Assembly (NCBI RefSeq): GCF_028368995.1
Contig: NZ_JAQNDL010000002.1
Coordinates: 801,724-865,723, forward strand
Length of the DNA: 64,000 nt
Direction: 5' to 3'
From: Nannocystis bainbridge
GTDB taxonomy: Bacteria > Myxococcota_A > Polyangia > Nannocystales > Nannocystaceae
This document shows positions 21,493 to 36,093 of this stretch, in pieces. The position numbers and the translations under genes are program-made. The notes beneath the pieces were generated by a model. The model searched no databases. It worked only from the letters and a program-made list of their open reading frames with translations, and was not told the origin of the DNA. Each line of letters opens with the position of its first letter. Position 1 is the stretch's first letter.

Positions 21493-21542
21493 GCGGCTCC
21501 ACGGTGTACCACCGCCGACGCGGCATTGTATGGTGGCCCCGC

Positions 21543-23042
21543 ATGTCCGTTCGCCGCCCCGGAGGCTCGTCCAGCGCCGCGCTCGAGCGGCTGTTCGACC
21601 GCGACTCGCCGCTCTCCTATGAGGAGCGGCTCGAGGCCCTGATCAAGGCGGCGCTGCCGGACCGGATCCAGCGGCTGTCGTTCGGCGCCGAGCTGGCGCG
21701 CGGAGGCATGGGCGCGGTGCGGCTGGCGTTCGACGAGGTGCTGCAGCGGCGGATGGCCGCCAAGACCATGCACGCCAAGACCTACGAGCACCTGATCCTG
21801 GTGCACGGGTTCTTGCGCGAGGCCCAGGTGACCGGCCAGCTCGACCACCCCAACATCGTGCCGATCCACGAGCTCGGGCGCGACGAGCAGGGTCAGCTGT
21901 ACTTCACGATGAAGCTGGTCGAGGGCCAGAGCCTCAAGGCGCTGATCGGCGGCGAGGCGGCGACCGACCACGAGCGGCTGTTCCACCGCCTCGAGATCTT
22001 CGTCAAGGTGTGCGACGCGCTGTCGTTCGCGCACAGCCGCGGGGTGATCCACTGCGACATCAAGTCGGCCAACGTGATGGTCGGCGCCTACGGCCAGGTC
22101 TACCTGATGGACTGGGGCGGGGCGCAGCTGCTGCCGCTTCGGTCCGGTGACGACGAGGCCCAGTGGGTCCGCGACGCCCTGCCGCCGCTGCCGCCGTCGG
22201 AGACCGACGGGCTGGTGTTCGGCACGCCTTCGTACATGTCGCCCGAGCAGGCCAACAGCCAGCCGCTCGACGAGCGCGCCGACGTGTTCTCGATGGGGGC
22301 GCTGCTCTACGAGATGATGGCGGGCCGGCCGCCGTACACCGCGCGCACCGCCATGGACGCGCTGATCATGGCCCGCGAGGCCAAGTTCGCCCCGCCCGAC
22401 ACACACGTGTCGGTGCCGTTCCCGCGCGAGCTGGTGCGCATCGTGACCCGGGCGCTGCGCCGCGATCCCGACGACCGCTACCCGAGCGTGGCGGCGCTGC
22501 AGGCCGACATCGTCCGGCTGCTGCGCGGCAGCGGCAGCTTCCAGACGGTCCGCTTCGCCGCCGGCGAGCACGTGATCCGCGAGGGCGAGATCGGCGACGC
22601 GGCCTACATCGTCCTGGCCGGCAGGCTCGAGGTCTACAAGATCGAGGCCGGGCACCACGTGTCGCTGCGCTGGCTCGGGCCCGGCGACGTGTTCGGCGAG
22701 ACCTCGATCTTCGCGGCGTCACGCCGGACCGCCAGCGTGCTGGTGGTCGAGGAGGCGACGCTGACGAAGATCACCAGCGACCTGATCGAGGAGGAGCTGA
22801 CCTCGATGAAGCCGTGGATGGGCGCTTTCGTGCGCACCCTGGCGGCCCGCTTCGCCGGCGTCGAGGGCCGCACGCCGCGGGCCGAGGGCGCGCCGCGCTC
22901 GGCCCCGCCGCGCCCGGCCGTGACGGTCAGCGCGCCGACGACCTCGGGCGGCGAGAGCGTGATCATCGACATCGACGAGCCGCTCGACGACGCGCTCGAC
23001 GGCAGCGACATGCACGCGACCGTGGTGGCCCGCCGCCGCTGA
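21543..23042 (+). CDS. Ser/Thr protein kinase with a C-terminal cyclic-nucleotide-binding (cNMP) domain
   Basis: Kinase motifs GGMGAVRLAF...AAK, HCDIKSANVMV, DWGGA and GTPSYMSPE. C-terminal cNMP-binding hallmarks are GDVFGETSIF and RRTASV (FGE...RTA). The start may instead be GTG at 21504. Confidence 0.85.
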   Translation: MSVRRPGGSSSAALERLFDRDSPLSYEERLEALIKAALPDRIQRLSFGAELARGGMGAVRLAFDEVLQRRMAAKTMHAKTYEHLILVHGFLREAQVTGQLDHPNIVPIHELGRDEQGQLYFTMKLVEGQSLKALIGGEAATDHERLFHRLEIFVKVCDALSFAHSRGVIHCDIKSANVMVGAYGQVYLMDWGGAQLLPLRSGDDEAQWVRDALPPLPPSETDGLVFGTPSYMSPEQANSQPLDERADVFSMGALLYEMMAGRPPYTARTAMDALIMAREAKFAPPDTHVSVPFPRELVRIVTRALRRDPDDRYPSVAALQADIVRLLRGSGSFQTVRFAAGEHVIREGEIGDAAYIVLAGRLEVYKIEAGHHVSLRWLGPGDVFGETSIFAASRRTASVLVVEEATLTKITSDLIEEELTSMKPWMGAFVRTLAARFAGVEGRTPRAEGAPRSAPPRPAVTVSAPTTSGGESVIIDIDEPLDDALDGSDMHATVVARRR

Positions 23043-23209: not shown

Positions 23210-24436
23210 TCACGCGCGCGCGGGCAGGGCGTCGAGCAGCTCGGTCAGCGCGCGCGGCAGGGCAGTGAAGCGGACCACCGCGCGGCCGGGGCTGGCGGCG
23301 ACGACCTTGGCGTAGGCGTCGACGCCGGGCAGGGCCGCGAGCACCAGCTTGAGGTCGGCGCGCAGCGGCAGCGGGGCGGACACCTGCAGCTCGGCGTTGT
23401 GGCGCTCGTCGTGGGCGACCAGCAGGGCCGGGACCTCCTGACCGCCGGTGTCCTTGCCCTCGAGCGCGGTGAACACCAGCGGCTGCGGCTGGGCCAGGAT
23501 CCGCCACTCGGCTGTCTCTTCGGCCATGTGGATGGCGAACGGGCCGTCGACGCCGGTGACGTCGTGGATCGTGATCGGCTCGCGCACGCCCTTGGGCCGG
23601 ACCTCGAAGCAGCCGCGGGTGCGCAGGCGATCGCCGAGGGCCCGCGCGGCGGACTCCGAGATCAGCACCTGACCGCCGACGGTGTAGCTCTCGATGCGCG
23701 ACGTCAGGTTGACGTGGCGGCCGACCACGCCGTACTTGGCGCGGCGGTTGGAGCCGATGTTGCCGACCACGACCTCGCCGGTGTGGACGCCGATGCCCAT
23801 CTCGAGCGCGGGCAGGCCGTGCGCGGCCAGGGCGGCGTTGACCTCGCCCATGGCCCGCTGCATGGCGATCGCGCAGGCGACCGCGCGCTCGGGGTGGTCG
23901 TCCTGCGGCACCGGGGCGCCGAACACCGCGAGGATGGCGTCGCCGATGAACTCGTTGATCGAGCCGCGGTACTCGCCGATCACGTCGGCCATGGCGCCGA
24001 GGTAGATGTTGAGGATCGCCACCACCTGCTCGGGGCCGAGGCCCTCGCACAGGGTCGAGAAGCCGCGCAGGTCGGAGATCAGGATCGTCAGCGTGCGCCG
24101 CTCGCCGCCGAGCTGGCGGCCCTCGGGCGAGGCGAGCAGCGTGTTGACGACCTCGTCGGTGACGTGGCGGCCGAACATCTGGCGGATGAAGGTGTTGCGC
24201 AGCTCGAGCTCGACCACCAGGGCCTCGACCTGCTCGATCTTGACGGCCAGCTGCTCCTCGATCTCGTTGGCGTGCTCGAGCGTCGAGTCGTGCAGCAGCA
24301 CCAGGTCGTCGTGCTCGGCCTGCAGCGCGGCCGCGGCGGCCACGAACGCGGCGCGGGCGGCCGGGTCGGCCAGGAGCTCGGCCGCGGCCTCGGGGTCGGC
24401 GAGGGCTCGCCGCCAGCGCGCATCGTCCGTGAGCAT
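23210..24436 (-). CDS. Class III nucleotidyl (adenylate/guanylate) cyclase with an N-terminal ~190 aa regulatory/helical domain
   Basis: Class III cyclase catalytic motifs: LTILISDLRGFSTL (metal-binding Asp), EFIGDAILAVFGAP, GIGVHTGEVVVGNIGS and GRHVNLTSRIES (NxxxR). It is the last gene of the SiaABC-like operon. Confidence 0.88.
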   Translation of the reverse strand: MLTDDARWRRALADPEAAAELLADPAARAAFVAAAAALQAEHDDLVLLHDSTLEHANEIEEQLAVKIEQVEALVVELELRNTFIRQMFGRHVTDEVVNTLLASPEGRQLGGERRTLTILISDLRGFSTLCEGLGPEQVVAILNIYLGAMADVIGEYRGSINEFIGDAILAVFGAPVPQDDHPERAVACAIAMQRAMGEVNAALAAHGLPALEMGIGVHTGEVVVGNIGSNRRAKYGVVGRHVNLTSRIESYTVGGQVLISESAARALGDRLRTRGCFEVRPKGVREPITIHDVTGVDGPFAIHMAEETAEWRILAQPQPLVFTALEGKDTGGQEVPALLVAHDERHNAELQVSAPLPLRADLKLVLAALPGVDAYAKVVAASPGRAVVRFTALPRALTELLDALPARA

Positions 24437-24449
24437 GCGGGCGGCCGGC

Positions 24450-24824
24450 TCAGTCGAGCGCGATCACGATCGCGGGCAGGAACTTCTTGAGGTTGGGCAG
24501 CGACTTGCCCTGCCACGGGATGGTCGACGAGCCGTGGACCTTGATCTCCGTCTCGCCCTTCTTGCGCGCGGCGATGGCGAACTTGTAGAGCATGTTGATG
24601 CCCGAGCTGTTGAGGAACTGCAGCTCGGTCATGCGCAGGGCGAGCGTCGGGCTGGCCTGGAGCACGCCGTCGAGCAGGTCCTCGATCGGCTTGTACTCGC
24701 TGGTGCTGAGGCGGAGCACGCCCTCGAAGTGGAGCGTGCGCGCGGGCAGGTCGAACCACACGCGGTAGCCGGGGCCTTTGATGTCGGTTTCCGACCCGGT
24801 GGGTCGCGTTGTCGTGTCCGTCAT
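24450..24824 (-). CDS. SiaC-like DUF1987-family partner-switch protein (putative phospho-acceptor)
   Basis: 124 aa, matching DUF1987 size. The central segment LALRMTELQFLNSSGINMLYKFAIAA resembles the SiaC core. The 4-nt overlap with the upstream kinase-like gene and a position between a HATPase protein and a cyclase match siaABCD synteny. Confidence 0.55.
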   Translation of the reverse strand: MTDTTTRPTGSETDIKGPGYRVWFDLPARTLHFEGVLRLSTSEYKPIEDLLDGVLQASPTLALRMTELQFLNSSGINMLYKFAIAARKKGETEIKVHGSSTIPWQGKSLPNLKKFLPAIVIALD

Positions 24825-25384
24825 GCCGATTTCACCTGTAGGCGGGCGGTGGTCTTGAGGAGCGCGTTGTCAGGATTGCCAGGCGCGGGGTCGAAGCGCC
24901 AGCCGAGCCGGGCCTTGTAGTCCGAGAGCATGGTGAGAAATCCCAGGCCCGAGGTCGTGAGCTCGGGGTTGGCGGCGTTCTCTTCGACGCGCTGCATCAG
25001 CAGGTCGGCGGGATCGCCGTCGAGCAGCTCGGCGAACTTGACCCGCAGGCCGTCGACCGTGGTGGTGGCGATCTGGTTGCTGACGACGACCACGAACTCG
25101 CCGGTCTCGACGCCGGCCTCGATGACGACGGTGCCGCCGGCGCAGAACTTGACCGCGTTCTCGATCAGCTCGTTGAGCACGTAGCCGACGCTGCCGATGA
25201 AGTCGCGCCGCTCGGCCTCCTCGGTCAGCTCGCTCTCGCTGACCTCGACGAAGTACTCGGCGAAGAAGTCGGCCGCGACGCTGCACTGGTTCCATCTGAC
25301 CGGGAACGCCCCCGGGTAGAACACGAGCGTGACGCGCGGTCCTGCGTCCGTGGGCTCCCTGTACTCGCCGATGATGCCGTCCAT
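24821..25384 (-). CDS. SiaB-like GHKL/HATPase_c_2 anti-sigma-factor-type Ser/Thr kinase
   Basis: N-box-like ELIENAVKF, G-box-like TSGLGFL and about 187 aa. It sits between PP2C-phosphatase and DUF1987 genes. Confidence 0.65.
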   Translation of the reverse strand: MDGIIGEYREPTDAGPRVTLVFYPGAFPVRWNQCSVAADFFAEYFVEVSESELTEEAERRDFIGSVGYVLNELIENAVKFCAGGTVVIEAGVETGEFVVVVSNQIATTTVDGLRVKFAELLDGDPADLLMQRVEENAANPELTTSGLGFLTMLSDYKARLGWRFDPAPGNPDNALLKTTARLQVKSA

Positions 25385-25407: not shown

Positions 25408-27768
25408 TCAGCGCCGCTTGATCACCACCGTCGTGATGTCGTCGAAGACCTTCTGCGCGCCGATGAAGCGCATGACGTCGTCGACGATCGCCTGCTTGAT
25501 GTCCGTCGCCGGCCGCTCGTGGGCCCGGCGCACGACCTCGCACAGGCGGTCGATGCCGTACTGCTCGCCGTGGATGTCCTCCGCCTCGGTTATGCCGTCA
25601 GTGTACAGGACGACGACATCGCCCGGCGACAGGCGCACCTCGGTGCGGGCGATGAAGGCGGCGATGTCGACCTCGATGCCCACGGGCATGCCCAGGTCGA
25701 TCGTGTCGATGCGCTCGATCGAGCCGTCCTGGCGGACCACCACCGCCTCTTCGTGCTGCCCGGTGAGGCGGAGCACCCCCTGCGCGTAGTCGAGGAGGAC
25801 GAGCGTGGCGGTGCGGTCGAGGCCGACCCGCTGGATGTTCTGGTAGAGGACCTTGTTGACGATGTTGAGGAAGCGCGCCGCGTCGCGCTCCTCGGCGGCC
25901 TGCAGCGTGCGCACGGCCGTCTGGATCATCAGCATCAGCACGCCGCTCTCGAGCCCGTGGCCCGTGACGTCGCCGATGCCGATCTTGACGCCGTCGCCGG
26001 CGCGCAGGACGTCGTAGTAATCGCCGCCCACCTCGTCCGCGGGGCGCATGTAGCCGGCGACGTCGAGGCCCTCGATCTCGGCCAGCTCGCGCTCGGGCGG
26101 CAGGACCATGAGCTGCAGCCGGCGGGCGACGTCGAGCTCGGCGCCGAGCCGCAGGTTCTCCTGCGCGAGCCGCTCGTTGAGCGCCATGATCTCGCGGGAG
26201 GCCCGCTGCAGCTGGGCGGTGCGCTGCTCGACCAGGCGCTCGAGGTCGTGCGTATTCGCGCGGATCTCGGCGGCCATCTGGTTGAAGGCGCGGCCGAGGG
26301 CGCCGAACTCGTCGTCGCTGCGCACGTCGACGCGGACCTCGTAGTCCTTTTGCGCGATCTTGCCGGCGCCGGCGGCGAGGTCGACCAGCGCGCCGGTCAT
26401 GCGCCGCGAGACCAGGAAGATCCCCAACATCACCACCGCGAGGGCGAAGAGGGTGATGGCGATCTGGTTGAAGAGGATCCCGCGGCTGCTGGCGGCGATG
26501 GTGTCTCGCGCCTTGTGCAGCGAGGCGTAGATCTCGGCGGCGGGGACGACGAAGCCGAGAGTCCAGCGCTCGGGCACGATGTCGGCCGAGCCCGACCAGG
26601 CGTTGAACGGGGCCAGCCGCTTGAGCACGACCACGTAGTCCTGGCCGCCGATCGCGACCGGGTCGCGGTAGTCGACGGCGTCGCCGCTGGGCAGCGCGAG
26701 GGCCCGGATCGCCGGGTCGCGCGACTGGTGCAGGAACCGCTGGAAGATGTCGACGCCGCCGCCCGAGGCGCCGCGGACCTCCTGCAGGCCGAGGATGTTT
26801 TGGCCGTCGTCGCGCACGGCGAACACGTTGCCGTTGTCCTGGGCGAGGAAGGCGAAGCCCGAGCCGGCGAGCCGCAGATCCTGGACGTAGCGGATCAGCT
26901 GGCCGAGCGTGACGTCGACGCCGACGGCCCCGGCGAAGCGCGTGCGCGTGGCGTCCCACACCGGCTGGAACAGGGTCATGATCGCACCGCTGCCGCCGGC
27001 GTCGGTGTACGGCGCGGTGCCGGTCAGCTGCGTCGCGGGCTCGCGCATGCGCGCGGGATCGGCGAGCCAGCGCTTCCAGCCGTCGACGATGCCGGGGAAG
27101 TAGAAGCCCCAGAACGGGCTGTTGTTGTGGCCGGGGTAGAGCTGGTCGGCGTGGCCGGCGGCGTCGGCGTAGGGGGCGATCCGCAGGTACTCGGCGCCCT
27201 CGGGGCCGATGAAGTACATGGCCTGCTTCTCGGCCCCGTGCTGCAGCTGCGCGGGCAACAGCAGGTCGAGCAGGGCGGTCTGCGCGACGGCGGCGCGGAC
27301 CTCAGGCTTGATGTCCCGAAGGCCAGGTTGATTCGGAGCAGCAGGCGCGTGCAGGTAGCCCCACACGGCCACGGCCGTCGGCTCGCCCGCGGGGGTCTGC
27401 GACCACTCGCCGCGCGCATCGTAGACGAGGGCGTCGCGCAGCGGGCCGGCCGCGGCGGCCGCGGCGGTCAGCGGCGCGAGCGCGGCCTGTTGATCGATGA
27501 GCGTCTGGGTCACCGCCGCGAGCACGCCGAGCTCGGCGCCGGCGCGGCCGCGGAGAAATTCGACGCGCTGCGCGGTGTCCTCGAGGTGGTTGGTGAGGTA
27601 CTCGCGACTGGCGCGCTCGAGGCCCTTGCGGATCTCCTCCGAGGCGTCGCTGCCGAGCGAGCTGATGCCGCGCAGCGAGGCCAGCGCGGCGAGCGTCAGC
27701 CCGATGACCAGCCCGACCCCAGCGACGAGGACGAACTTGGTGCGGAACCTGGAGCCCGTGGTGGCCAT
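25408..27768 (-). CDS. SiaA-like membrane sensor phosphatase: periplasmic sensor domain, TM, HAMP and a PP2C/SpoIIE phosphatase domain
   Basis: N-terminal TM (FVLVAGVGLVIGLTLAAL), about 390 aa extracytoplasmic region, second TM (ITLFALAVVMLGIFLV), HAMP-like linker (FGALGRAFNQMAAEI). PP2C motifs are GGDYYDV, GDVTGHG and YTDGITEA. Confidence 0.8.
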   Translation of the reverse strand: MATTGSRFRTKFVLVAGVGLVIGLTLAALASLRGISSLGSDASEEIRKGLERASREYLTNHLEDTAQRVEFLRGRAGAELGVLAAVTQTLIDQQAALAPLTAAAAAAGPLRDALVYDARGEWSQTPAGEPTAVAVWGYLHAPAAPNQPGLRDIKPEVRAAVAQTALLDLLLPAQLQHGAEKQAMYFIGPEGAEYLRIAPYADAAGHADQLYPGHNNSPFWGFYFPGIVDGWKRWLADPARMREPATQLTGTAPYTDAGGSGAIMTLFQPVWDATRTRFAGAVGVDVTLGQLIRYVQDLRLAGSGFAFLAQDNGNVFAVRDDGQNILGLQEVRGASGGGVDIFQRFLHQSRDPAIRALALPSGDAVDYRDPVAIGGQDYVVVLKRLAPFNAWSGSADIVPERWTLGFVVPAAEIYASLHKARDTIAASSRGILFNQIAITLFALAVVMLGIFLVSRRMTGALVDLAAGAGKIAQKDYEVRVDVRSDDEFGALGRAFNQMAAEIRANTHDLERLVEQRTAQLQRASREIMALNERLAQENLRLGAELDVARRLQLMVLPPERELAEIEGLDVAGYMRPADEVGGDYYDVLRAGDGVKIGIGDVTGHGLESGVLMLMIQTAVRTLQAAEERDAARFLNIVNKVLYQNIQRVGLDRTATLVLLDYAQGVLRLTGQHEEAVVVRQDGSIERIDTIDLGMPVGIEVDIAAFIARTEVRLSPGDVVVLYTDGITEAEDIHGEQYGIDRLCEVVRRAHERPATDIKQAIVDDVMRFIGAQKVFDDITTVVIKRR

Positions 27769-27798: not shown

Positions 27799-28971
27799 TC
27801 AGCGTCCGGGTTTGCGGCCGGAGGCGACGTAGATCGGCCAGGTGGCGAAGCCGCGGCGGCTGCGGATCGCGTACACGTGATCGCGGAAGCCCATGCGCAG
27901 GCGCTCGACGACCTCGGGCGGCTGCTGCGTGGCGGTCGACAGCTCGCCGGTGACGTACTCCTCCCAGCTCTCGATCACCCGCGCGAAGTCGTCGATCGCG
28001 GTGTTGTTGTTGGTGATCGGGATCTGCTCCATGCGCACGTCCTCGAAGCCCATGTCGGTGAGCAGCGAGAACATCTTCGGCCCGAAGTTCATGTCCATGC
28101 CGAGGCTCTGGGCGATCTTCACGGCCTGCTGGTAGGTCCACGTGACCGACTCGTGGCGCGGGTAGCCGTAGTTGTGCGCCGACATCTCGTTGGTCAGGTA
28201 GACGCGACCGCCGGGCTTACAGATCCGCAGCAGCTCGCGCAGGATGCTCGACGGATCGTTGAAGATCTGCAGGGCCAGGCGCGAGGTGACGAAGTCGAAG
28301 CTGTTCGACGGCAAGAACAGGTGGGTCGCGTCGCCGAACTGGTACTCGATGTCGGTGATGCCGAAGTCGCGGGCGATCTGCTGCGCGTACTGCAAGAACG
28401 GGCGCGAGTGGTCGACGCCGACGATGTAGGTGGGCTCGAACTCCTTGTAGACGAGCACCGCGAAGTCGCCGATCCCGCAGCAGATGTCGGCGATCCGCAT
28501 GTGCTTGCCGAGGCCGTGCTGGCGCAGCAGCTCGCGCTCGTGCGACCACACGATGTTGGTCTGGGTCCGCAGCACCGGCACCAGCTGATCGTTCTCGATC
28601 ACGCCCTGGCCGGGATAAAACGCCTTGTCGTACTGCTCGACGATGGTGTTGCCGAAGCGCGCGCCGAGGAAGCCGAACCGCAGCGGCGCCCACGGGACCA
28701 CGCTCGAGATGACGAGCTTGAGCTTGAGCGCGGGGTGACGCTCGGCGCAGGCGGCGATGAAGCGCGCGAGCTCGAGGAAGCCGGCGTGGTTGAGGTAACG
28801 CAGGCGCTTGAAGTTGAGGTAGAGGACGCCTCGCACGGCGTCGGCGGCGTGGTCGAGGCGGGCCCGCACCGGCGCGAAGTCCTCGGCGCCGGCGGGGCGC
28901 AGAGAGCCCTCGAGCGCGACCTCCTGGTCGTTCTCGCTGAAGCGGATCGTGAACGGTCGCTCGTGCTCCAT
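27799..28971 (-). CDS. Fusion of a DUF1987/SiaC-like N-terminal domain with a class I SAM-dependent methyltransferase
   Basis: N-terminal ~100 aa (VLYLNFKRLRYLNHAGFLELARFIAAC) parallels the SiaC-like protein. Methyltransferase motif I is ADICCGIGDFAVL and the post-I/II region is CKPGGRVYLTNE. Confidence 0.65.
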   Translation of the reverse strand: MEHERPFTIRFSENDQEVALEGSLRPAGAEDFAPVRARLDHAADAVRGVLYLNFKRLRYLNHAGFLELARFIAACAERHPALKLKLVISSVVPWAPLRFGFLGARFGNTIVEQYDKAFYPGQGVIENDQLVPVLRTQTNIVWSHERELLRQHGLGKHMRIADICCGIGDFAVLVYKEFEPTYIVGVDHSRPFLQYAQQIARDFGITDIEYQFGDATHLFLPSNSFDFVTSRLALQIFNDPSSILRELLRICKPGGRVYLTNEMSAHNYGYPRHESVTWTYQQAVKIAQSLGMDMNFGPKMFSLLTDMGFEDVRMEQIPITNNNTAIDDFARVIESWEEYVTGELSTATQQPPEVVERLRMGFRDHVYAIRSRRGFATWPIYVASGRKPGR

Positions 28972-28983
28972 GGCCGGCTCGGC

Positions 28984-29490
28984 TCACTCGTGCGGGACGG
29001 TCAGGACGATGACGCCGGTGCCTTCACCCTCGCGCAGCGCGAGCCCGACGCCGTGCAGCGCGACCAGCTCGAGCAGCCCGACCTCGGCCGGCGGGCGCAG
29101 GATCATCGACTCGAACTCGGCCTCGTAGCGGGCGCGCGCGTCGGTCGGCTCGGCCAGCCCGAGGTCGACCCGCAGCCGCCGGGCCAGCGCCTCGTCGGTC
29201 GGCATCGTCAGCTCAGCGATCACGTGCTCGTCGGTGCGCCCGACCTCGACCACGATCTCGCCCTCGCTCGGGCGGGCGCGGAACACGTACTCGAGCACCT
29301 CGTTGAGATAGGTCGAGAGGCGCGTGGTCAGCTGCTCGGGGTCGAAGCGATCGGAGGCGACGAAGCGCGCGATGTAATCGGCCAGCCGCTGGCAATGCGT
29401 CCAGCTGTCATATAGCCCGCGGACGCTGATCCGCAGGGTGAGGATCGGGCTCGGGCCGGACGGTGAGGGGGGCGCGGGATCGGAGGTCAT
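28984..29490 (-). CDS. Second SiaB-like HATPase-type kinase paralog (about 168 aa)
   Basis: YLNEVLEYVFRARPSEGEIVVEVGRTDEHVIAELT parallels ELIENAVKFCAGGTVVIEAGVETGEFVVVVSN of the other kinase-like protein. It lies immediately upstream of the DUF1987-methyltransferase fusion. The start is taken at MTSDPAPP, upstream of which the ORF is composition-biased. Confidence 0.5.
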   Translation of the reverse strand: MTSDPAPPSPSGPSPILTLRISVRGLYDSWTHCQRLADYIARFVASDRFDPEQLTTRLSTYLNEVLEYVFRARPSEGEIVVEVGRTDEHVIAELTMPTDEALARRLRVDLGLAEPTDARARYEAEFESMILRPPAEVGLLELVALHGVGLALREGEGTGVIVLTVPHE

Positions 29491-29732
29491 GCCGGGGCGG
29501 AGGCGTGAGAGGGACCGCAGGCGCTCGCACCGGGCACGGATCGGCGCCTTGAGCCACGGTAACACGAAGCCGTCACGACCGGCCGCGAGCCGCGGACGCG
29601 GGCGAGGTTCGGGTCCGCGCACCGACGTGCGCCGGCGCAGACGGCCCGCGCGGGCGCGAAAAAAGCTCGCGGGCCGCGGGAACAAGCCCCAGGAGCCCGT
29701 GTCCGAGCCGCCACACGACCGGGGCAAGGACG

Positions 29733-31826
29733 ATGACTACGACCAGGACGCTCGCCATCAAGGTGTTTTACGGCGATCAGCTCGTCGACACGCAGACGCT
29801 GACGCAAGACGTTATCAAAATTGGAAAACTGAAGAGTAGCCACCTCTGTCTCGATGACGAGGCTGTGGCCCGCATGCACGCCGTGATCGAGGTGTCCGGC
29901 GAAGAGGTGCGGGTGATCGATCTCGGGAGCGCGGCGGGCACCGTGCTCAACGGCCAGCGGATCGACAAGAACGCGGTGCTGCACGATGGCGACGCCTTGA
30001 ACTTCGGGCCCTACCGGCTCGAGGTCGGCTTCGTCCGGCAGCAGGCCGCGGTCGCGCCGGCCCCGTCGCAGGTGGCCGCGCCCGTGGCTGTGGCGGTCGC
30101 CGCGGCGCCGATGGCCGCGCCGATGGCGACGCGGGCGCCGATCCAGATCGACCTCAGCGAGGTCGAGAATCAGGGCGGCTCGCGCGTGGCCGAGGTCGTG
30201 GCGATGTACGGCACGACGGTGCTCGACGTGCAGCACGTCGGTCAGCTGCGCAACCGCAAGTCGCAGGCGCCGATCTTCCTCGCCATCGGCGGGGCGATGC
30301 TGGTCGCTGGCGCGGCGGTGTTCTTCAGCGACGTGAACGCGGACTGGCCCGGCTACGGCAAGAAGGTCCAGGATTCGATCGAGCAGGGCACGCCGCGCCC
30401 GACCCCGCCCGGAAACGGTCTGGCGGCGATCGGCATGCTGCTGGCGATCGCGGGCCTCGTGCCGTTCAGCATGGGCCTCATCCGCACCGGCGACTACGTC
30501 AACAAGAACTTCACGATCGGCGAGGGTCACGGCGCGTCGTTCCACGTGCCGCCGGCCGGCCTGCCCGAGCCCAACGGCTTCCCGCTGGTCCGCGGCAGCG
30601 ACCACGAGTTCGCGCTCAACTTCACCCAGAACATGAGCGGTGAGGTCACCTTCGACGGCCAGACGATCACGCTGCAGCAGCTGGTCGCCACCGGTCGCGC
30701 GGGCGCGCAGGGCTCGTCGTTCAGCTTCCCGCTGCCGCCCGGAGCGACGGCGCGGGTCAAGTACCAGGACGTCACCTTTTACGTGAACTCGGTCGCGCCG
30801 GGCGCGGTGATCAAGGGCGGCAGCGAGACCGACAAGCCGTTCTGGATCTACAACGGCGCCTCGTTCGTGGTCATCGGCAGCCTGCTGGTGCTCACGCACC
30901 TGATCCCCAACGAGGCCGGCAACCTCAGCCTCGACGAGATGATGGAAGAGAACCGCTTCGTCGGTTACCTCAACCAGCCCGACAAGCCGCCGGAGGAGGA
31001 GGAGCCGCCGCCGGAGGACATGGAGAACTCCGACGACGAGGCCGGCGGCACCGGTCAGCGTCACAAGGGCGAGGAGGGCAAGATGGGCAAGCCCACCTCG
31101 AAGAGCAAGTCGGGCCTCTACGCCATGAAGGGCCCCAAGGACGCCATCCCGCAGATGGCCCGTAACTTCGACCCCGACATGGCCGCGCGCCAGGCCGGCA
31201 TCCTCGGGGTCATGAGCGCCGAGAGCGGCCACTTCCTCGCCTCGCCGTACGGCGGCGCGTTCGCGGTCGGCAACGACGACGCGGACGTGTGGGGCGGCCT
31301 CACCGGCACCGAGGTCGGCGAAGCGTACGGCGTCGGCGGCCTCGGCCTGGTCGGCACCGGCCGCGGCGGCGGCGGCACCGGCGAGGGCACGATCGGCCTC
31401 GGCAACACGGGCCTCATCGGCAAGGGCGGCGGCGGCGGCACGGGCTCCGGCTACGGTCGTGGCGCAGGCGCCGGCTTCGGCGGCCGCGGCACCCGCGTGC
31501 CGACGGTCCGTCAGGCCAAGGCCGAGGTCCAGGGCGCGCTCGACAAGGACATCATTCGCCGCATCGTCCGCGCGCACATCAACGAGGTCCGCTACTGCTA
31601 CAACCAGGCCCTCGCGCGTGACCCCAACGCCAAGGGCCGCGTCGCCGTCCAGTTCACCATCGGCGGCACCGGCAAGGTGCCCACGGCGGTGGTCCAGGAG
31701 AGCACGTTGAAGGACCCGGCCGTCGGCTCCTGCATCGCCCAGGCGGTCAAGCGCTGGACCTTCCCCAAGCCCGAAGGCGGCGGTTCGGTCATCGTCTCGT
31801 ACCCGTTCGTGCTCGAGCCGGGTTGA
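29733..31826 (+). CDS. FHA-domain protein with a Gly-rich low-complexity region and a C-terminal AgmX/PglI-type (TonB-C-like) domain
   Basis: N-terminal FHA (IKIGKLKSSHLCLDDEAVARMHAVIEVSGEEVRVIDLGSAAGTVLNGQRI). One predicted TM. GGGGTG repeats. C-terminal VRYCYNQALARDPNAKGRVAVQFTIGGTGKV...SVIVSYPFVL is typical of the myxobacterial AgmX/PglI C-terminal domain. Confidence 0.8.
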   Translation: MTTTRTLAIKVFYGDQLVDTQTLTQDVIKIGKLKSSHLCLDDEAVARMHAVIEVSGEEVRVIDLGSAAGTVLNGQRIDKNAVLHDGDALNFGPYRLEVGFVRQQAAVAPAPSQVAAPVAVAVAAAPMAAPMATRAPIQIDLSEVENQGGSRVAEVVAMYGTTVLDVQHVGQLRNRKSQAPIFLAIGGAMLVAGAAVFFSDVNADWPGYGKKVQDSIEQGTPRPTPPGNGLAAIGMLLAIAGLVPFSMGLIRTGDYVNKNFTIGEGHGASFHVPPAGLPEPNGFPLVRGSDHEFALNFTQNMSGEVTFDGQTITLQQLVATGRAGAQGSSFSFPLPPGATARVKYQDVTFYVNSVAPGAVIKGGSETDKPFWIYNGASFVVIGSLLVLTHLIPNEAGNLSLDEMMEENRFVGYLNQPDKPPEEEEPPPEDMENSDDEAGGTGQRHKGEEGKMGKPTSKSKSGLYAMKGPKDAIPQMARNFDPDMAARQAGILGVMSAESGHFLASPYGGAFAVGNDDADVWGGLTGTEVGEAYGVGGLGLVGTGRGGGGTGEGTIGLGNTGLIGKGGGGGTGSGYGRGAGAGFGGRGTRVPTVRQAKAEVQGALDKDIIRRIVRAHINEVRYCYNQALARDPNAKGRVAVQFTIGGTGKVPTAVVQESTLKDPAVGSCIAQAVKRWTFPKPEGGGSVIVSYPFVLEPG

Positions 31827-32116: not shown

Positions 32117-33499
32117 ATGCAGGCCCCTGACCCCTGGGGCGAGCGGTTGCCTCGCAAGCTCGGACTCGCCAGCACCGTCGCCGTGCTGGTCGGGTCGACG
32201 ATCGGCAGCGGGATCTTCCGGACCCCGGCGGAGATCGCCGGCCACATCGACGACATGGGCCTTTTCATGGCCGCGTGGGTCGCCGGGGGCGTGGTCGCGC
32301 TGGCCGGGGCGCTGACGGTCGCCGAGCTGGCCATCCTTTATCCCCGCAGCGGAGGCGTCTACGTCTACCTGCGCGAGGCCTTCGGCAAGCTGCCGGCCTT
32401 CCTGTTCGGCTGGGCCGAGCTGCTCATCCTGCGCCCGGCCGCGTACGGCGCGATCGCGGTGACCTCGGCCGAGTACCTGCTGCGCGTGTTCGGGGTGGCC
32501 GGCGCGGAGCCGCTGCTGGGGCCGCTGTCGCGCGCGCAGGTGGTGGCGGTGGCGATGATCGCCACGGTGGCCGCGATCAACCGCCGCGGGGTCGAGTTCG
32601 GGGCGGTGGTGCAGAACGTCAGCACCGCGCTGAAGGTCGCGGCGCTGCTCGGGCTGGTCGCGCTCGGGCTCCTGCTTTCGCCGGAGGCGTCCACGGCAGT
32701 GCCCGCGGTCGCGGCGCCGGCGGGCGAGGGGGCGTTCGTGCTGGCGATGGTCGCCATCCTCTGGGCCTACGACGGCTGGTGCGACGTCGGGTTCGTCAGC
32801 GGCGAGGTCCGCGATCCACAACGCGCGCTGCCGCGCGTGTTCATCCTCGGCACCGCCGCGGTGGTCGCGCTGTATCTGGCGGCCAACCTCGTGTACCTGC
32901 GGGTGATCCCGCTCGAGCAGATGGCCGGGGCCCCGCTCGTGGCCGCGGACGTCGCCGCGGCGCTAATCGGCCCGTTCGGCACCACTCTGGTCGCCGCCGC
33001 CGTCATGATCAGCACCTTCGGGACCCTCAACGGGTCGATGATGACGGGGCCGCGGGTGTTCTACGCGATGGCGGAGGACGGGCTGTTCTTCCGCCGCCTG
33101 GCCCAGGTCCACCCGCGCCACGGCACGCCCTCGGCCAGCATCGTGCTCGGCGCGGCGCTCGGGATCGTGTTCGTCTCGGTGCGCAGCTTCGCCGAGCTGG
33201 CCGGTCAGTTCGTGATCGGGATCTGGCCGTTTTATGCCCTCAGCGTGGCCGCCGTGTTCGTCCTGCGGCGGAAGCGCCCCGACCTGCCGCGGCCGTACCG
33301 GACATTCGGCTATCCGTGGGTGCCGCTGCTGTTCCTGGCCGCCTCGGTGTTCCTGCTCGGCAACTATGCGGTCTCGCAGCCGCGAGCGTTCATCCTCGAC
33401 TGTGCCGTCGTTTTGTCCGGAGTGCCCGTATTTTGGCTGTGGTCGCGTCGCGCGCCGGTCTCCGAGGCCAATGGCGGAGGAAGCGCCGGCACAGGGTGA
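32117..33499 (+). CDS. APC-superfamily amino-acid permease
   Basis: Twelve predicted TM helices. The N-terminal GSTIGSGIF motif is typical of amino-acid/polyamine/organocation transporters. Length is 460 aa. Confidence 0.85.
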   Translation: MQAPDPWGERLPRKLGLASTVAVLVGSTIGSGIFRTPAEIAGHIDDMGLFMAAWVAGGVVALAGALTVAELAILYPRSGGVYVYLREAFGKLPAFLFGWAELLILRPAAYGAIAVTSAEYLLRVFGVAGAEPLLGPLSRAQVVAVAMIATVAAINRRGVEFGAVVQNVSTALKVAALLGLVALGLLLSPEASTAVPAVAAPAGEGAFVLAMVAILWAYDGWCDVGFVSGEVRDPQRALPRVFILGTAAVVALYLAANLVYLRVIPLEQMAGAPLVAADVAAALIGPFGTTLVAAAVMISTFGTLNGSMMTGPRVFYAMAEDGLFFRRLAQVHPRHGTPSASIVLGAALGIVFVSVRSFAELAGQFVIGIWPFYALSVAAVFVLRRKRPDLPRPYRTFGYPWVPLLFLAASVFLLGNYAVSQPRAFILDCAVVLSGVPVFWLWSRRAPVSEANGGGSAGTG

Positions 33500-33927
33500 C
33501 AGAGATCTCCTCTGCGCTCAGACCTGTGAGCGCGGTGGATTGATCCGGCATTGCCGTGTCGCTCGGTCCTATCAATCGTCGAAGTTTATGTAATTTGATC
33601 TACATTTTTCTTGTCGGCGCCACGAACGCCGATTGTGACGATCGCCGCAGTTGGCCGCAAAGCCGGTCCACACGGCGGAAAATTTGGAATCGGGCTTTCA
33701 TCGTCGTCGGCGTGAAGTGCGGCCGTGCGGCACCTCCGTGCTCGCCGTCTCGTCGCAGAAACCCGTGATCGCGGGGTGCGTGATTGGTTGCGCTGCGCAA
33801 GGCGCGACGATTATGGTGATGCGGTCTCAGGTGAGCTGACCTGAGGCTGCCTCTCCGGCAATGTCCTTTTCACCATGGTCGTTCGGCCAGGTTCTTTCGA
33901 GCCTGTCCGATGGCCCCAGGGGGTCTC

Positions 33928-36093
33928 ATGTCCGCGCGTCGCATCATCGTCTCTGCTGTCTCCACCTGTCTGCTGTCTGCCTGCCAAGAGGCGGGAATCG
34001 CCGCCGAAGCCGAGCTTCGCACCGTCACCGCCGAAGACCTGACAGGGCTCGGCCCCGGCGAGGTGCTCGAGCTCGACCTGTCTGAAGGGACAGTTCGTTT
34101 CGCGATGACCGACGGCCCGATCGACTTCACCCGCGTGGCGGTGCGCAGCGGCGACGAGCGCCCGGCGCTGGTGCAGGACCTGCTGGTGCGCCACGGCGAG
34201 CGCTGGGGCGTGCGCACGGCCGGGGCGGAATTTGACTTCGCGTTCGAGCTCGACGGCGACATGGTCAAGGCCGCGACGTCGGCGGGGCAGGTGGCGACGT
34301 TCGTGTGGTCGCAGAGCCAGGCGATCGGGGCCCTGCCGCGGGTCGACCGGGTCGAGGCCGACGAGGCCGGCGTGCCGCGGTTCCTCGCTGGCGACCTCGG
34401 GCGGCTGGCCGGCAACGGCGACGTGCGAGAGTCCGCCCGCGGCTGGCTGGCCGGCATGGCGCCCGTGTTCCGCCTCACCGACGCGGCCGATCTCGAGGCG
34501 GTCCGGCACCACACCGACGCGCTCGGAGTGGTCCATGTCCGCTTCCAGCAGTTCCTCTACGACCTGCCGGTGGTCGGCGGCGAGCTGACCGTGCACGCCG
34601 ATGCGGCCAGCGGTCAGGTCCACGCGGTCACCGGTCGCTTCGTGCCCGGCGAGGCGCTGCCGATCGATCCGGCGCTCGAGCCCGAGGCGACCATCGCCGC
34701 CGTCGCCGATACGCTGAGCGACGCGTGGGTCAGCCTCGAGGCGCCCGAGCTCGTCTACGTGGTGACCGAGACCGGGCCGCGCCTGGCCTGGCAAGGGGTC
34801 ATCGCGTACGAGGACGAGGAGGGGCCGCAGCGCGACCTCGTGTTCGCCGACGCGGCCTCCGGCGAGCTGGTGGCCCGCCACCCGCAGATCCACCACGCCC
34901 GCAACCGCAAGGTCTACGACGCCAAGTCGGGGACCAAGCTGCCGGGCGCGCTCGCCGTCAGCGAGGGCGGCACCACCAACGATCCGGTGGCCAAGGCCGC
35001 GTACGACTTCTCGGGCATCACCTACGACTTCTTCGCCGCCAAGTTCGGCCGCGACAGCTTCAACGGCAGCGGCGCGACCATCCACTCGACGGTCCACTAC
35101 TCGAAGAACTACGTCAACGCGTTCTGGAACGGCCAGCAGATGGTCTACGGCGACGGCGACGGCTACTACGCCAGCCCGTTCGCGCAGGACATGGACGTGG
35201 TCGTGCACGAGCTGACCCACGCGGTCACGCAGTACGAGGCCAGCCTCGTCTATCAGAACCAGTCGGGCGCGCTCAACGAGGCGATGTCGGACATCATGGC
35301 CGCGGCCGCCGACGCCCACCAGAACGGCGTGACCGCGAAGACTTGGCTGCTCGCCGAGACCTGTTGGACCCCGGGTGTGGCCAATGACGCGATGCGCTAC
35401 ATGGCCAATCCGACCAAGGACGGGCAGTCCTATGATTATTACCCGGAGCGCTACACCGGCAAGGCGGACAACGGGGGCGTCCACATCAACTCGGGCATCG
35501 CCAACCTGGCGTTCTACCTGCTGTCGCAGGGGGGCAAGCACCCGCGCAACAAGACGAGCACGCAGGTGCCGGCGCTCGGCATCGACAAGGCGGGGCAGAT
35601 CTTCTACCGCGCGCTGACGAACTACCTCAACAGCAACGCGACGTTCCAGGACGCCCGTAACGCGACGGCTCAGGCCGCCACCGAGCTCTACGGGGCCGAC
35701 GAGGTGGCAGCGGTGCACGCGGCGTGGACGGCGGTCGGCGTGCCGGGTGCCCCCAATGGCGGCGGTGGTGGCGGCGGCGGTCAGGACTGTTCGGGCACGC
35801 CCTTCGCGGGCAACCTGAGCGGCACCGGCGAGGAGCAGTTCCAGCCGAACGGCTCGTATTACTCCACGACCAAGACCGGGGCGCACACCGGTTGCCTGGC
35901 CGGCGCGGACGCGGCCAACTTCGACCTCTACCTCTACAAGTGGAACGGCTCGGCCTGGGCCAAGGTCGCCAAGTCGGAGGGCCCGACCAGCGAGGAGTCG
36001 ATCAAGTACAACGGGGCCGCCGGCTACTACACGTGGCAGGTGGTGTCGGTCAGCGGCGCGGGCGATTACAGCTTGACGCTCAAGGCCCCGTGA
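33928..36093 (+). CDS. Secreted M4 (thermolysin-family) zinc metalloprotease with an N-terminal propeptide and a C-terminal pre-peptidase (PPC)-like domain
   Basis: Signal peptide MSARRIIVSAVSTCLLSAC. HELTHAV (HExxH) with the downstream Glu ligand in EAMSDI. The GVHINSGI and ANLAFY thermolysin motifs are present. A poly-Gly linker precedes a C-terminal beta-rich domain. Confidence 0.9.
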   Translation: MSARRIIVSAVSTCLLSACQEAGIAAEAELRTVTAEDLTGLGPGEVLELDLSEGTVRFAMTDGPIDFTRVAVRSGDERPALVQDLLVRHGERWGVRTAGAEFDFAFELDGDMVKAATSAGQVATFVWSQSQAIGALPRVDRVEADEAGVPRFLAGDLGRLAGNGDVRESARGWLAGMAPVFRLTDAADLEAVRHHTDALGVVHVRFQQFLYDLPVVGGELTVHADAASGQVHAVTGRFVPGEALPIDPALEPEATIAAVADTLSDAWVSLEAPELVYVVTETGPRLAWQGVIAYEDEEGPQRDLVFADAASGELVARHPQIHHARNRKVYDAKSGTKLPGALAVSEGGTTNDPVAKAAYDFSGITYDFFAAKFGRDSFNGSGATIHSTVHYSKNYVNAFWNGQQMVYGDGDGYYASPFAQDMDVVVHELTHAVTQYEASLVYQNQSGALNEAMSDIMAAAADAHQNGVTAKTWLLAETCWTPGVANDAMRYMANPTKDGQSYDYYPERYTGKADNGGVHINSGIANLAFYLLSQGGKHPRNKTSTQVPALGIDKAGQIFYRALTNYLNSNATFQDARNATAQAATELYGADEVAAVHAAWTAVGVPGAPNGGGGGGGGQDCSGTPFAGNLSGTGEEQFQPNGSYYSTTKTGAHTGCLAGADAANFDLYLYKWNGSAWAKVAKSEGPTSEESIKYNGAAGYYTWQVVSVSGAGDYSLTLKAP

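Follow-up and report, generated by a model that had tools for sequence, protein, structure and literature searches.

Two adjacent genes of Nannocystis bainbridge (contig NZ_JAQNDL010000002.1) encode a degenerate counterpart of a bacterial partner switch. One product is a SiaC-like domain fused to a complete class I S-adenosylmethionine (SAM)-dependent methyltransferase (hereafter the fusion), the other a small kinase-like protein (kin2). Both genes lie in the window, the whole stretch of 64,000 nucleotides (nt) that was analysed, next to those of a predicted active switch made of a membrane sensor phosphatase, a kinase (kin1) and a STAS-like phosphoprotein (stas1). Partner-switch modules control sigma factors, diguanylate cyclases and secretion. 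A sequence-only reading of the same DNA had interpreted kin2 and the fusion as a second kinase/phospho-acceptor pair served by the single SiaA-like phosphatase. The duplicated pair and the fusion were borne out by the analysis reported here; the phosphorylation was not. What the analysis shows directly is that the two pairs are paralogous and which folds they have, that motifs have been lost from the second pair, that those of the methyltransferase are intact, and that gene order is kept across phyla. Control of the methyltransferase by binding, with no phosphorylation of the fusion by kin2, is held with high confidence. The cassette is widespread, and its mechanism would differ from the kinase/phospho-acceptor scheme.

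Paralogy and fold of the second pair

Two open reading frames (ORFs) are present on the minus strand at 27799-28971 (390 amino acids, aa) and 28984-29490 (168 aa), 12 nt apart, as had been read, and they contain the quoted motifs LNHAG (fusion, aa 60-64), ADICCGIGDFAVL and LNEVLEYVFRA (kin2, aa 62-72). The proposed resemblance between the N-terminal domain of the fusion and the adjacent SiaC-like protein was substantiated by profile-profile comparison, in which the alignments of the fusion N-domain and stas1 families matched at 98.4% (hhalign, expectation value (E) 7e-15, 106 columns). The kin2 and kin1 family alignments matched at 98.4% as well (E 1e-14, 154 columns). Family hidden Markov models cross-match within the window, and phmmer gave cross-matches between the second and the active pair in many loci. 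With NCBIfam, aa 6-94 of the fusion matched slr1659_superfam (NF047705) at 42 bits (E 9.4e-11) and kin2 matched slr1658_superfam (NF047703) at 26.9 bits (E 2.7e-6), both below the cut-off of 100 bits. The fusion N-domain and kin2 are divergent paralogues of the slr1659/slr1658 superfamilies, homologous to stas1 and kin1; profile-profile comparison, NCBIfam and structure models all point to a duplicated SiaB-like/SiaC-like pair.

The label DUF1987, which the sequence-only reading had attached to the domain, proved wrong at the sequence level. No protein matched Pfam DUF1987 (PF09345) at E<=1, nor did the N-domains of three fusions or three standalone proteins, taken from different phyla, at E<=10; the family is slr1658/slr1659. 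No Pfam domain was found for kin2 or for the fusion N-domain, and PDB sequence searches with stas1, kin1 and a kin1 profile recovered neither SiaC nor SiaB, SiaC being missed by phmmer. The AlphaFold (AF2) model of the N-domain (aa 1-115) reached a predicted local distance difference test score (pLDDT) of 93.7 and displayed the topology beta-beta-alpha-beta-alpha-beta-alpha-beta. Ranks 1-4 of its Foldseek matches in the PDB were SiaC chains (6kko_D, 7e6g; TM 0.61-0.68, probability 1.00), the best of them being the SiaC chain of a SiaB-SiaC complex; SiaC 6k4f was also among the top matches, and RsbV, SpoIIAA and other STAS domains came after SiaC. For the confident model of kin2, the top structural match was SiaB. 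The expected folds were thus recovered, a SiaC/STAS fold in the N-domain and a SiaB/SpoIIAB-type GHKL fold in kin2, and the likeness to SiaC and SiaB holds at the fold level, not as membership of a Pfam or NCBIfam family.

A phmmer search of the fusion N-domain against 1.84 billion representatives yielded 57 matches at E<=1e-3. Among them were fusions (389-393 aa), numerous fragments of differing size, standalone proteins (~112-118 aa), a small number of tandem duplicates (230-249 aa) and a single 316-aa protein carrying the domain at its C-terminus. Judged by protein length alone, no other enzyme fused to the N-domain was evident among these 57 matches. Two tandem copies of an slr1659-like domain were found in P0181, P0188, P0196, P0198 and P0206 (~230-249 aa) of the same search.

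Loss of the acceptor and ATP-binding residues

Relatives of the fusion are encoded in at least 449 stretches of a one-genome-per-species collection, from several phyla, and the orthologues of all components were drawn from the 80 best of these stretches. For the acceptor site, 64 stas1 and 74 fusion orthologues were compared. The acceptor region of SiaC, N67-T68-S69, is located at the N-terminus of helix alpha2, and T68 is the target of SiaB (PMC8457831). The corresponding segment of the stas1 orthologues is F-L-N-S-S-G-I-N, with Ser in 64/64 and 63/64 sequences, and its N-S-S matches N67-T68-S69 by position at the start of alpha2. By position it also matches the D-S-S-G of SpoIIAA. Where stas1 has this segment, the fusion family displays the pattern L-N-[N/H/F]-[V/T/I/A/L]-[A/G]-F, and no Ser/Thr is conserved at the acceptor position across its orthologues. 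The window's fusion has N61-H62-A63-G64 at this place and no Ser/Thr in aa 61-80. Since Asn61 (71/74) and Phe65 (70/74) stay conserved, the alpha2 surface of the N-domain is still under selection, which fits a binding role without phosphorylation.

The kinases were aligned from 67 kin1 and 73 kin2 orthologues taken from the genome loci. A word-index search with kin2 retrieved homologues from Nannocystaceae only (named hypothetical proteins, without Pfam domain), and the distant orthologues were therefore collected from the genome loci. The column of the N-box Asn is occupied by Asn in 67/67 kin1 and in 0/73 kin2, where T, V, L, A, Y or I is found instead. The sequence-only reading had pointed to an N-box-like segment in kin2; the segment LNEVLEYVFRA is indeed there, but the Asn that defines an N-box is absent from it and Tyr68 takes its position. 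The S and the first G of the SGLG lid vary among the kin2 orthologues, N173, E206 and N208 of kin1 are not kept, and N110, E111 and E114 of the N-box region are. Because its Mg-ATP-binding residues are lost, kin2 is predicted to be a pseudokinase, and kinase activity appears unlikely on these grounds. The claim of a kinase and phospho-acceptor pair is not supported by these counts, and a cycle in which the fusion is phosphorylated by kin2 and then dephosphorylated by the SiaA-like phosphatase is unlikely, since both the ATP-binding residues of kin2 and the acceptor Ser/Thr of the fusion are lost.

A motif W-x-[H/Q]-C is found near the N-terminus of both kinase-like proteins (WNQC, aa 31-34 of kin1; WTHC, aa 30-33 of kin2). 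Its Trp and Cys are present in 66/67 and 58/67 kin1 and in 69/73 and 70/73 kin2, respectively. The conserved Cys could hint at redox sensitivity.

The methyltransferase part

Pfam and the invariant SAM motifs confirmed that the domain joined covalently to the SiaC-like one is a complete class I SAM-dependent methyltransferase. Methyltransf_11 matched with E 3.6e-18, and Methyltransf_25, Methyltransf_31 and Ubie_methyltran matched as well, all above their gathering scores and over aa ~130-270 of the fusion; the scores for Methyltransf_11/25/31 were 66.4, 63.1 and 64.4 bits against cut-offs of 21-27. Motif I is ADICCGIGDFAVL, and in an alignment of 20 sequences the SAM-motif residues D162, G166, G168, D187 and D214 were invariant, together with many others. 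An N-terminal lid (YD..FYPGQ..E) is likewise conserved in the family and a C-terminal cap is present; many lid and cap residues are invariant. This part of the protein is ~51% identical across phyla and among the best conserved of the cassette. Judging from these residues, the methyltransferase is an enzyme under strong constraint and not a relic.

Members of the fusion family are named methyltransferase, 'UbiE' or 'quinone methyltransferase' in the databases. UbiE and MenG are the best NCBIfam models, yet the scores (69 vs 216 bits and 65 vs 158) fall below the equivalog cut-offs, and the last two names are for that reason not justified. UbiE/MenG, the small-molecule methyltransferases of Methyltransf_11 and LahSB share the class I Rossmann core with the fusion; what sets the fusion family apart from UbiE/MenG and LahSB are invariant lid and cap residues of its own and the SiaC-like domain at the N-terminus. 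LahSB (PDB 6uak) was the best PDB sequence match (1.2e-16, aa 148-279). A substrate could not be assigned from such generic matches (LahSB, phosphoethanolamine N-methyltransferases and UbiE/MenG below cut-off). An anti-phage defence system was also considered and rejected: PADLOC returned only a generic methyltransferase-domain match to mad2 (aa 147-286), and the other four proteins of the cassette had no match in PADLOC.

The active switch

The phosphatase displays the Pfam domains SpoIIE (3.5e-39), HAMP (1.2e-12) and dCache_1 (5e-7), and scored 113 bits with the NCBIfam model of SiaA, the cut-off of which is 700. With slr1658_superfam, kin1 obtained 149.7 bits and passed the cut-off of 100; with SiaB_fam_kinase (NF038262) it reached only E 1.9e-5. 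Similarly, stas1 passed the cut-off of slr1659_superfam (123 bits, cut-off 100). Because the SiaA and SiaB family models match weakly, the kinship to the Pseudomonas Sia system is distant.

The catalytic residues of kin1 are strictly kept. In the N-box (NE..ENA.KF), Asn and Lys are both present in 67/67 sequences, the lid S-G-L-G is found in 67, 66, 67 and 67 of 67, and the polar positions N173, E206 and N208 are occupied in 63/67, 67/67 and 65/67, respectively. The N-box NELIENAVKF of the window's kin1 aligns to canonical histidine-kinase N-boxes such as LTNLVGNAIKFT, and the kin1 profile gave N/G2-box matches to histidine kinases in the PDB, with weak E-values and the motifs in exact register. 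Phosphatase, kin1 and stas1 are thus predicted to make up a switch that is complete and competent for catalysis. In Sorangium cellulosum So ce56 (L033/L083 12697-13614) and Chondromyces apiculatus (P0288), kin1 and stas1 are fused into one protein of 305 aa.

Conservation of the five-gene cassette

The distribution of the fusion was as wide as the 449 stretches indicate. The best 120 protein matches of the fusion share 47-94% identity with it and cover at least 96% of the query, with the exception of one truncated entry of 300 aa; the proteins of N. pusilla, N. exedens and N. punicea are 94-95% identical. The 80 best loci belong to Myxococcota, Alpha- and Gammaproteobacteria, Verrucomicrobia (Chthoniobacter) and Chloroflexi (Anaerolineales). 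The kin2 gene is located directly upstream of the fusion gene in 79 of these 80 loci, with a gap of ~0-30 nt in most of them and overlapping start and stop codons in several. Among the 74 loci with enough flanking sequence, 70 keep the order kin2, fusion, phosphatase, kin1, stas1, with the phosphatase gene between the two pairs. Because this arrangement is conserved, the fusion constitutes real and direct domain-architecture evidence linking a methyltransferase to a partner-switch module, as had been claimed.

Across phyla, identity to the proteins of the window amounts to 43-62% for stas1, 43-53% for the phosphatase, 34-41% for kin1, 35-47% for the fusion N-domain and 26-33% for kin2. The five genes are strictly co-inherited. 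In three related Nannocystis metagenome-assembled genomes (L005-L007), no phosphatase gene is present between the pairs and a PP2C-domain gene is found ~3 kb upstream on the opposite strand, an arrangement regarded as a rearranged cassette. The locus of the cyanobacterium Leptolyngbya sp. PCC 7375 (L081 5344-8591) encodes slr1659, a dCache-HAMP-PP2C protein and slr1658, and no methyltransferase pair. From this cyanobacterial core, the methyltransferase pair is seen to be an addition to a three-gene core switch.

Stalk motif and probable output of the active switch

The gene following stas1 in the window encodes a class III nucleotidyl cyclase (Pfam Guanylate_cyc, 5e-26), which is not a constant neighbour of the cassette. 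In 55 of the 80 loci, the variable neighbouring enzymes carry at their N-terminus the common stalk motif DL.LL[HY]E.T[IL]EH...[IV]E..L; in the 25 others, no enzyme with this motif is encoded within 8 kb. The carriers are class III cyclases in Nannocystis and several other lineages, and PP2C phosphatases encoded downstream in Sorangium/Polyangium and divergently upstream in many Alphaproteobacteria (examples are L033 at ~12.8 kb, L044 at ~7.1 kb, L031 and L017). The methyltransferase pair is the constant extra element beside these variable enzymes.

In the Sia system, the N67-T68-S69 region of SiaC attaches to conserved motifs of the helical SiaD stalk, a contact that phosphorylation prevents (PMC8457831). 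The parallel to SiaC on the SiaD stalk suggests that the stalk-bearing enzymes are direct targets of dephosphorylated stas1, and the stalk motif may be a docking site for the slr1659-type protein. In the Nannocystis genome, the active switch probably acts primarily through the class III cyclase.

The region 3' of the cassette in So ce56 (L083 13663-16981) encodes a stalk-bearing PP2C protein, a second DUF6272/HATPase_c_2 kinase-like protein, an ORF of 136 aa and a PAS-GAF-STAS protein. It looks like a multi-tier partner-switch cascade.

Proposed control of the methyltransferase

The following scheme is preferred. The protein kin2 would bind the SiaC-like domain of the fusion stoichiometrically, as SiaB binds SiaC, and thereby set the activity or availability of the methyltransferase. 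The sensor phosphatase would dephosphorylate stas1, which in this state would engage the stalk-bearing output enzyme, here the class III cyclase; a precedent for this step exists because SiaC binds the SiaD stalk and the neighbouring enzymes carry the stalk motif. Dephosphorylated stas1 would in addition compete with the fusion domain for kin2 and so link the methyltransferase to the sensor phosphatase. The methyltransferase would accordingly be switched by exchange of partners and not by its own phosphorylation. Every binding event and the direction of control are what we infer in this scheme. The chances appear about even that the methyltransferase is gated by stoichiometric binding to kin2 within the degenerate pair and coupled by competition to the active switch. 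The specific wiring, in which a pseudokinase and a pseudo-substrate gate the methyltransferase and the phosphorylatable STAS-like protein from the adjacent active switch competes for binding, is put forward tentatively, as a possibility with a chance below even.

Several points weigh against this scheme. Loss of the ATP-binding residues, which were identified by alignment, is no proof that kin2 has no kinase activity. In 17/74 fusion orthologues the second acceptor position is Thr, and elsewhere in the N-domain Ser89/Ser90 are conserved; kin1 may phosphorylate the fusion at another site, or in some lineages. The methyltransferase pair is accessory to a three-gene core, and its role could be modulatory. 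Both the place of the methyltransferase as output as opposed to input and the competition of stas1 with the fusion for kin2 are likewise what we infer.

If kin2 were instead an active Ser/Thr kinase acting on the SiaC-like domain, with the SiaA-like phosphatase common to both pairs reversing the reaction, the cassette would contain a second phospho-switch. In its favour, the folds suit a SiaB/SiaC pair, the genes of kin2 and the fusion adjoin each other in the same operon as that of the PP2C phosphatase, three residues of the N-box region (N110, E111, E114) are retained, and Thr occurs at the acceptor site in the minority of orthologues just mentioned. This second phospho-switch is nevertheless very improbable: the Mg-ATP Asn is missing in all 73 kin2, the lid has lost its S-G and further polar positions that never vary in kin1 are gone, the window has H62-A63 at the acceptor site with no Ser/Thr nearby (aa 61-80), and none is conserved family-wide. 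At the other extreme, the resemblance could be due to chance or to annotation, the upstream ORF being spurious and the fusion an ordinary quinone methyltransferase of the UbiE type with an unrelated leader. The database names 'UbiE', 'quinone methyltransferase' and 'hypothetical protein' and the lack of Pfam domains for kin2 and the N-domain would agree with this explanation, the probability of which is negligible; it was refuted by profile-profile E-values of 1e-14 to 1e-15, by confident models with SiaC and SiaB as top structural matches, by synteny across five phyla and by UbiE/MenG equivalog scores far below cut-off.

Two further explanations place the pair differently. The first puts the methyltransferase upstream of the active switch, as an input module in the manner of a stressosome. 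The RsbRST-RsbU-RsbVW gene order of the Bacillus sigma-B pathway is the basis for this resemblance. The STAS-methyltransferase would sense SAM, S-adenosylhomocysteine or its substrate and hold or release kin2, which would modulate the PP2C phosphatase or kin1. The components follow one another in the same order, [GHKL-like + STAS]-PP2C-[kinase + STAS]; the active switch already has separate variable outputs with a common stalk motif, and the Sorangium outputs feed a further kinase/STAS module. Such an input is considered unlikely, since RsbT is an active kinase and RsbS/RsbR are phosphorylated, as opposed to the degenerate pair here, and since the phosphatase has its own periplasmic dCache sensor and HAMP domain and no N-terminal docking domain of the RsbU type. 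A full set of catalytic motifs under strong constraint is also more readily expected of an enzyme than of a pure sensor, even if an enzyme may sense as well. Alternatively, the non-phosphorylatable SiaC-like domain could act as a decoy that titrates kin1, or could recruit the methyltransferase to the helical stalk motif used by stas1, the enzyme methylating a component of the pathway and kin2 being only its buffer. The alpha2 motif retained in the fusion at Asn61 and Phe65 marks a functional binding surface, the same surface of SiaC contacts both SiaB and the SiaD stalk (PMC8457831), and enzymes with the stalk motif adjoin the cassette in the majority of loci (55/80). Decoy or recruitment is nonetheless quite unlikely, as 25/80 loci encode no such enzyme within 8 kb and the gene tightly coupled to the fusion is kin2, not kin1.

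Relation to known systems

The SiaABCD system of Pseudomonas aeruginosa consists of the PP2C phosphatase SiaA, the kinase SiaB, the DUF1987 phosphoprotein SiaC and the diguanylate cyclase SiaD. The cassette resembles it in encoding together a HAMP-PP2C phosphatase of the membrane, a small kinase of the GHKL type and a small phosphoprotein related to STAS, in having SiaB and SiaC as best structural matches of kin2 and the fusion N-domain, in the acceptor at the N-terminus of alpha2 (N-T-S in SiaC, N-S-S in stas1), and in an output enzyme with a helical stalk bearing conserved motifs (PMC8457831). It differs in that DUF1987 is not matched and scores with the SiaA and SiaB models stay far under their cut-offs, in that a second, degenerate B/C pair is present with its C-like domain fused to a methyltransferase, and in that the output enzyme with the stalk belongs to the class III cyclases or PP2C phosphatases and not to the GGDEF enzymes.

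The closest named families are the slr1658/slr1659 regulators (NF047703, NF047705), the cut-offs of which are passed by kin1 and stas1 and the models of which are also matched by kin2 and the N-domain. The cyanobacterial core has the same dCache-HAMP-PP2C phosphatase as the cassette. Unlike these regulators, kin2 (27 bits) and the N-domain (42 bits) stay below the 100-bit cut-offs and are without catalytic and acceptor residues; unlike the cassette, the cyanobacterial locus has no methyltransferase pair and a different gene order. According to PMC7555055, which cites Zer et al. (2018, Plant J), the slr1658 mutant of Synechocystis is defective in recovery from iron starvation and has raised pgr5 expression; it was the only experimental work found on slr1658/slr1659.

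With the stressosome/sigma-B cascade of Bacillus subtilis, the cassette has in common two GHKL-like and two STAS-like proteins around one PP2C phosphatase in a comparable gene order, and, as in RsbR, one STAS domain is fused to another domain. In that cascade, unlike here, RsbT works as a kinase, RsbS/RsbR become phosphorylated, RsbR carries its STAS domain at the C-terminus and a sigma factor is the output. The active RsbT kinase and the phosphorylatable STAS Ser/Thr that characterise a stressosome have no equivalent in kin2 and the fusion. A regulator that is no kinase may also be compared: UsfX of Mycobacterium tuberculosis, a non-kinase anti-sigma factor, reportedly does not phosphorylate its antagonists RsfA and RsfB. 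The target sequestered by UsfX is a sigma factor, none of which is encoded here, and the domain that would be bound in the cassette is fused to an enzyme.

Partner switches in which a STAS protein regulates an enzyme and not a sigma factor are found in HsbA-HsbD of P. aeruginosa and BgrU/W/V-BgrR of Sinorhizobium meliloti (PMC8457831, PMC7647112). Unlike the methyltransferase, the enzymes regulated there are diguanylate cyclases unfused to STAS, and neither a degenerate second pair nor a methyltransferase is described for these systems. BgrRSTUWV of S. meliloti was considered as the same system and rejected: the literature gives a GGDEF output and classical STAS proteins and mentions no methyltransferase, and S. 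meliloti is not among the 80 loci listed.

The component families were already known, and NCBIfam already names the slr1658/slr1659 superfamily regulators. No description of a methyltransferase as target of a partner switch was found in the literature searched, and no paper on the five-gene cassette or the degenerate pair was found in the literature on slr1658/slr1659, DUF1987, DUF6272 and STAS with methyltransferase. If the proposal is true, control of a methylation reaction would be shown for a partner-switch module for the first time, in the form of a fixed five-gene cassette. With an active pair next to a degenerate one, the operon offers a test case for bacterial pseudokinases and non-phosphorylatable STAS domains, and several carriers of the cassette are tractable (Sorangium cellulosum So ce56, Mesorhizobium, Rhizobium, Ensifer, Roseibium, Devosia sp. 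Leaf420). The misleading names 'UbiE', 'quinone methyltransferase' and 'hypothetical protein' can be corrected. The stalk motif may mark direct targets of slr1659-type proteins, including those of the poorly understood cyanobacterial Slr1658/Slr1659 system.

Locus layout and genomic setting

The G+C content of the window is ~71%. Six ORFs of the minus strand form a tight array in the order kin2, fusion, phosphatase, kin1, stas1 and cyclase, with successive gaps of 12, 30, 23, -4 and 13 nt, the start of stas1 overlapping the stop of kin1 by 4 nt. The start of kin2 at 29490 is backed by many homologues that are also 168 aa long. All features are listed in Table 1.

Table 1. Coordinates of the cassette, its motifs and the adjoining features in the window.
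Feature	Position	Strand	Basis or remark
kin2, 168 aa, SiaB/anti-sigma fold, degenerate slr1658-type paralogue, predicted pseudokinase	28984..29490	-	ATG at 29490
Degenerate N-box of kin2, LNEVLEYVFRA, aa 62-72	29275..29307	-	Tyr68 replaces Mg-ATP Asn
Fusion, 390 aa, SiaC-like domain and methyltransferase	27799..28971	-	ORF map
Fusion N-terminal SiaC-like/STAS-fold domain, aa 1-112, divergent slr1659-type	28636..28971	-	NCBIfam, hhalign, AF2, Foldseek
LNHAG, fusion aa 60-64, acceptor-motif position at start of helix alpha2, without Ser/Thr	28780..28794	-	
Fusion class I SAM-dependent methyltransferase part, aa 113-390, with lid and C-terminal cap	27799..28635	-	Pfam
SiaA-like membrane sensor phosphatase, 786 aa, dCache-HAMP-coiled coil-PP2C/SpoIIE	25408..27768	-	Pfam
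kin1, 187 aa, slr1658-superfamily kinase, N-box and G2 lid intact	24821..25384	-	NCBIfam
stas1, 124 aa, slr1659-superfamily STAS-like phospho-acceptor	24450..24824	-	LNSSG aa 71-75 = nt 24600-24614
Class III nucleotidyl cyclase, 408 aa, N-terminal helical stalk motif	23210..24436	-	Pfam Guanylate_cyc
Stalk motif of cyclase, aa 37-81	24194..24328	-	Motif common to neighbouring enzymes elsewhere
Intergenic region between operon and divergent FHA gene, presumed promoter region	29491..29732	.	ORF map and sequence

At the other end of the array, a Ser/Thr protein kinase with a C-terminal cyclic-nucleotide-binding domain is encoded at 21504-23042 (+), convergent with the cyclase gene and 168 nt away from it; this protein is a plausible reader of the cyclase product. 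The intergenic region of 242 nt upstream of the operon is common with a divergent gene (29733-31826, +), the product of which is an FHA-domain protein of 697 aa with a Gly/Pro-rich middle part. FHA domains bind phospho-Thr. Further along, two neighbours are ordinary: 33910-36093 (+) encodes a thermolysin-family (M4) metalloprotease that is secreted and has a propeptide, and 32117-33499 (+) encodes an amino-acid permease.

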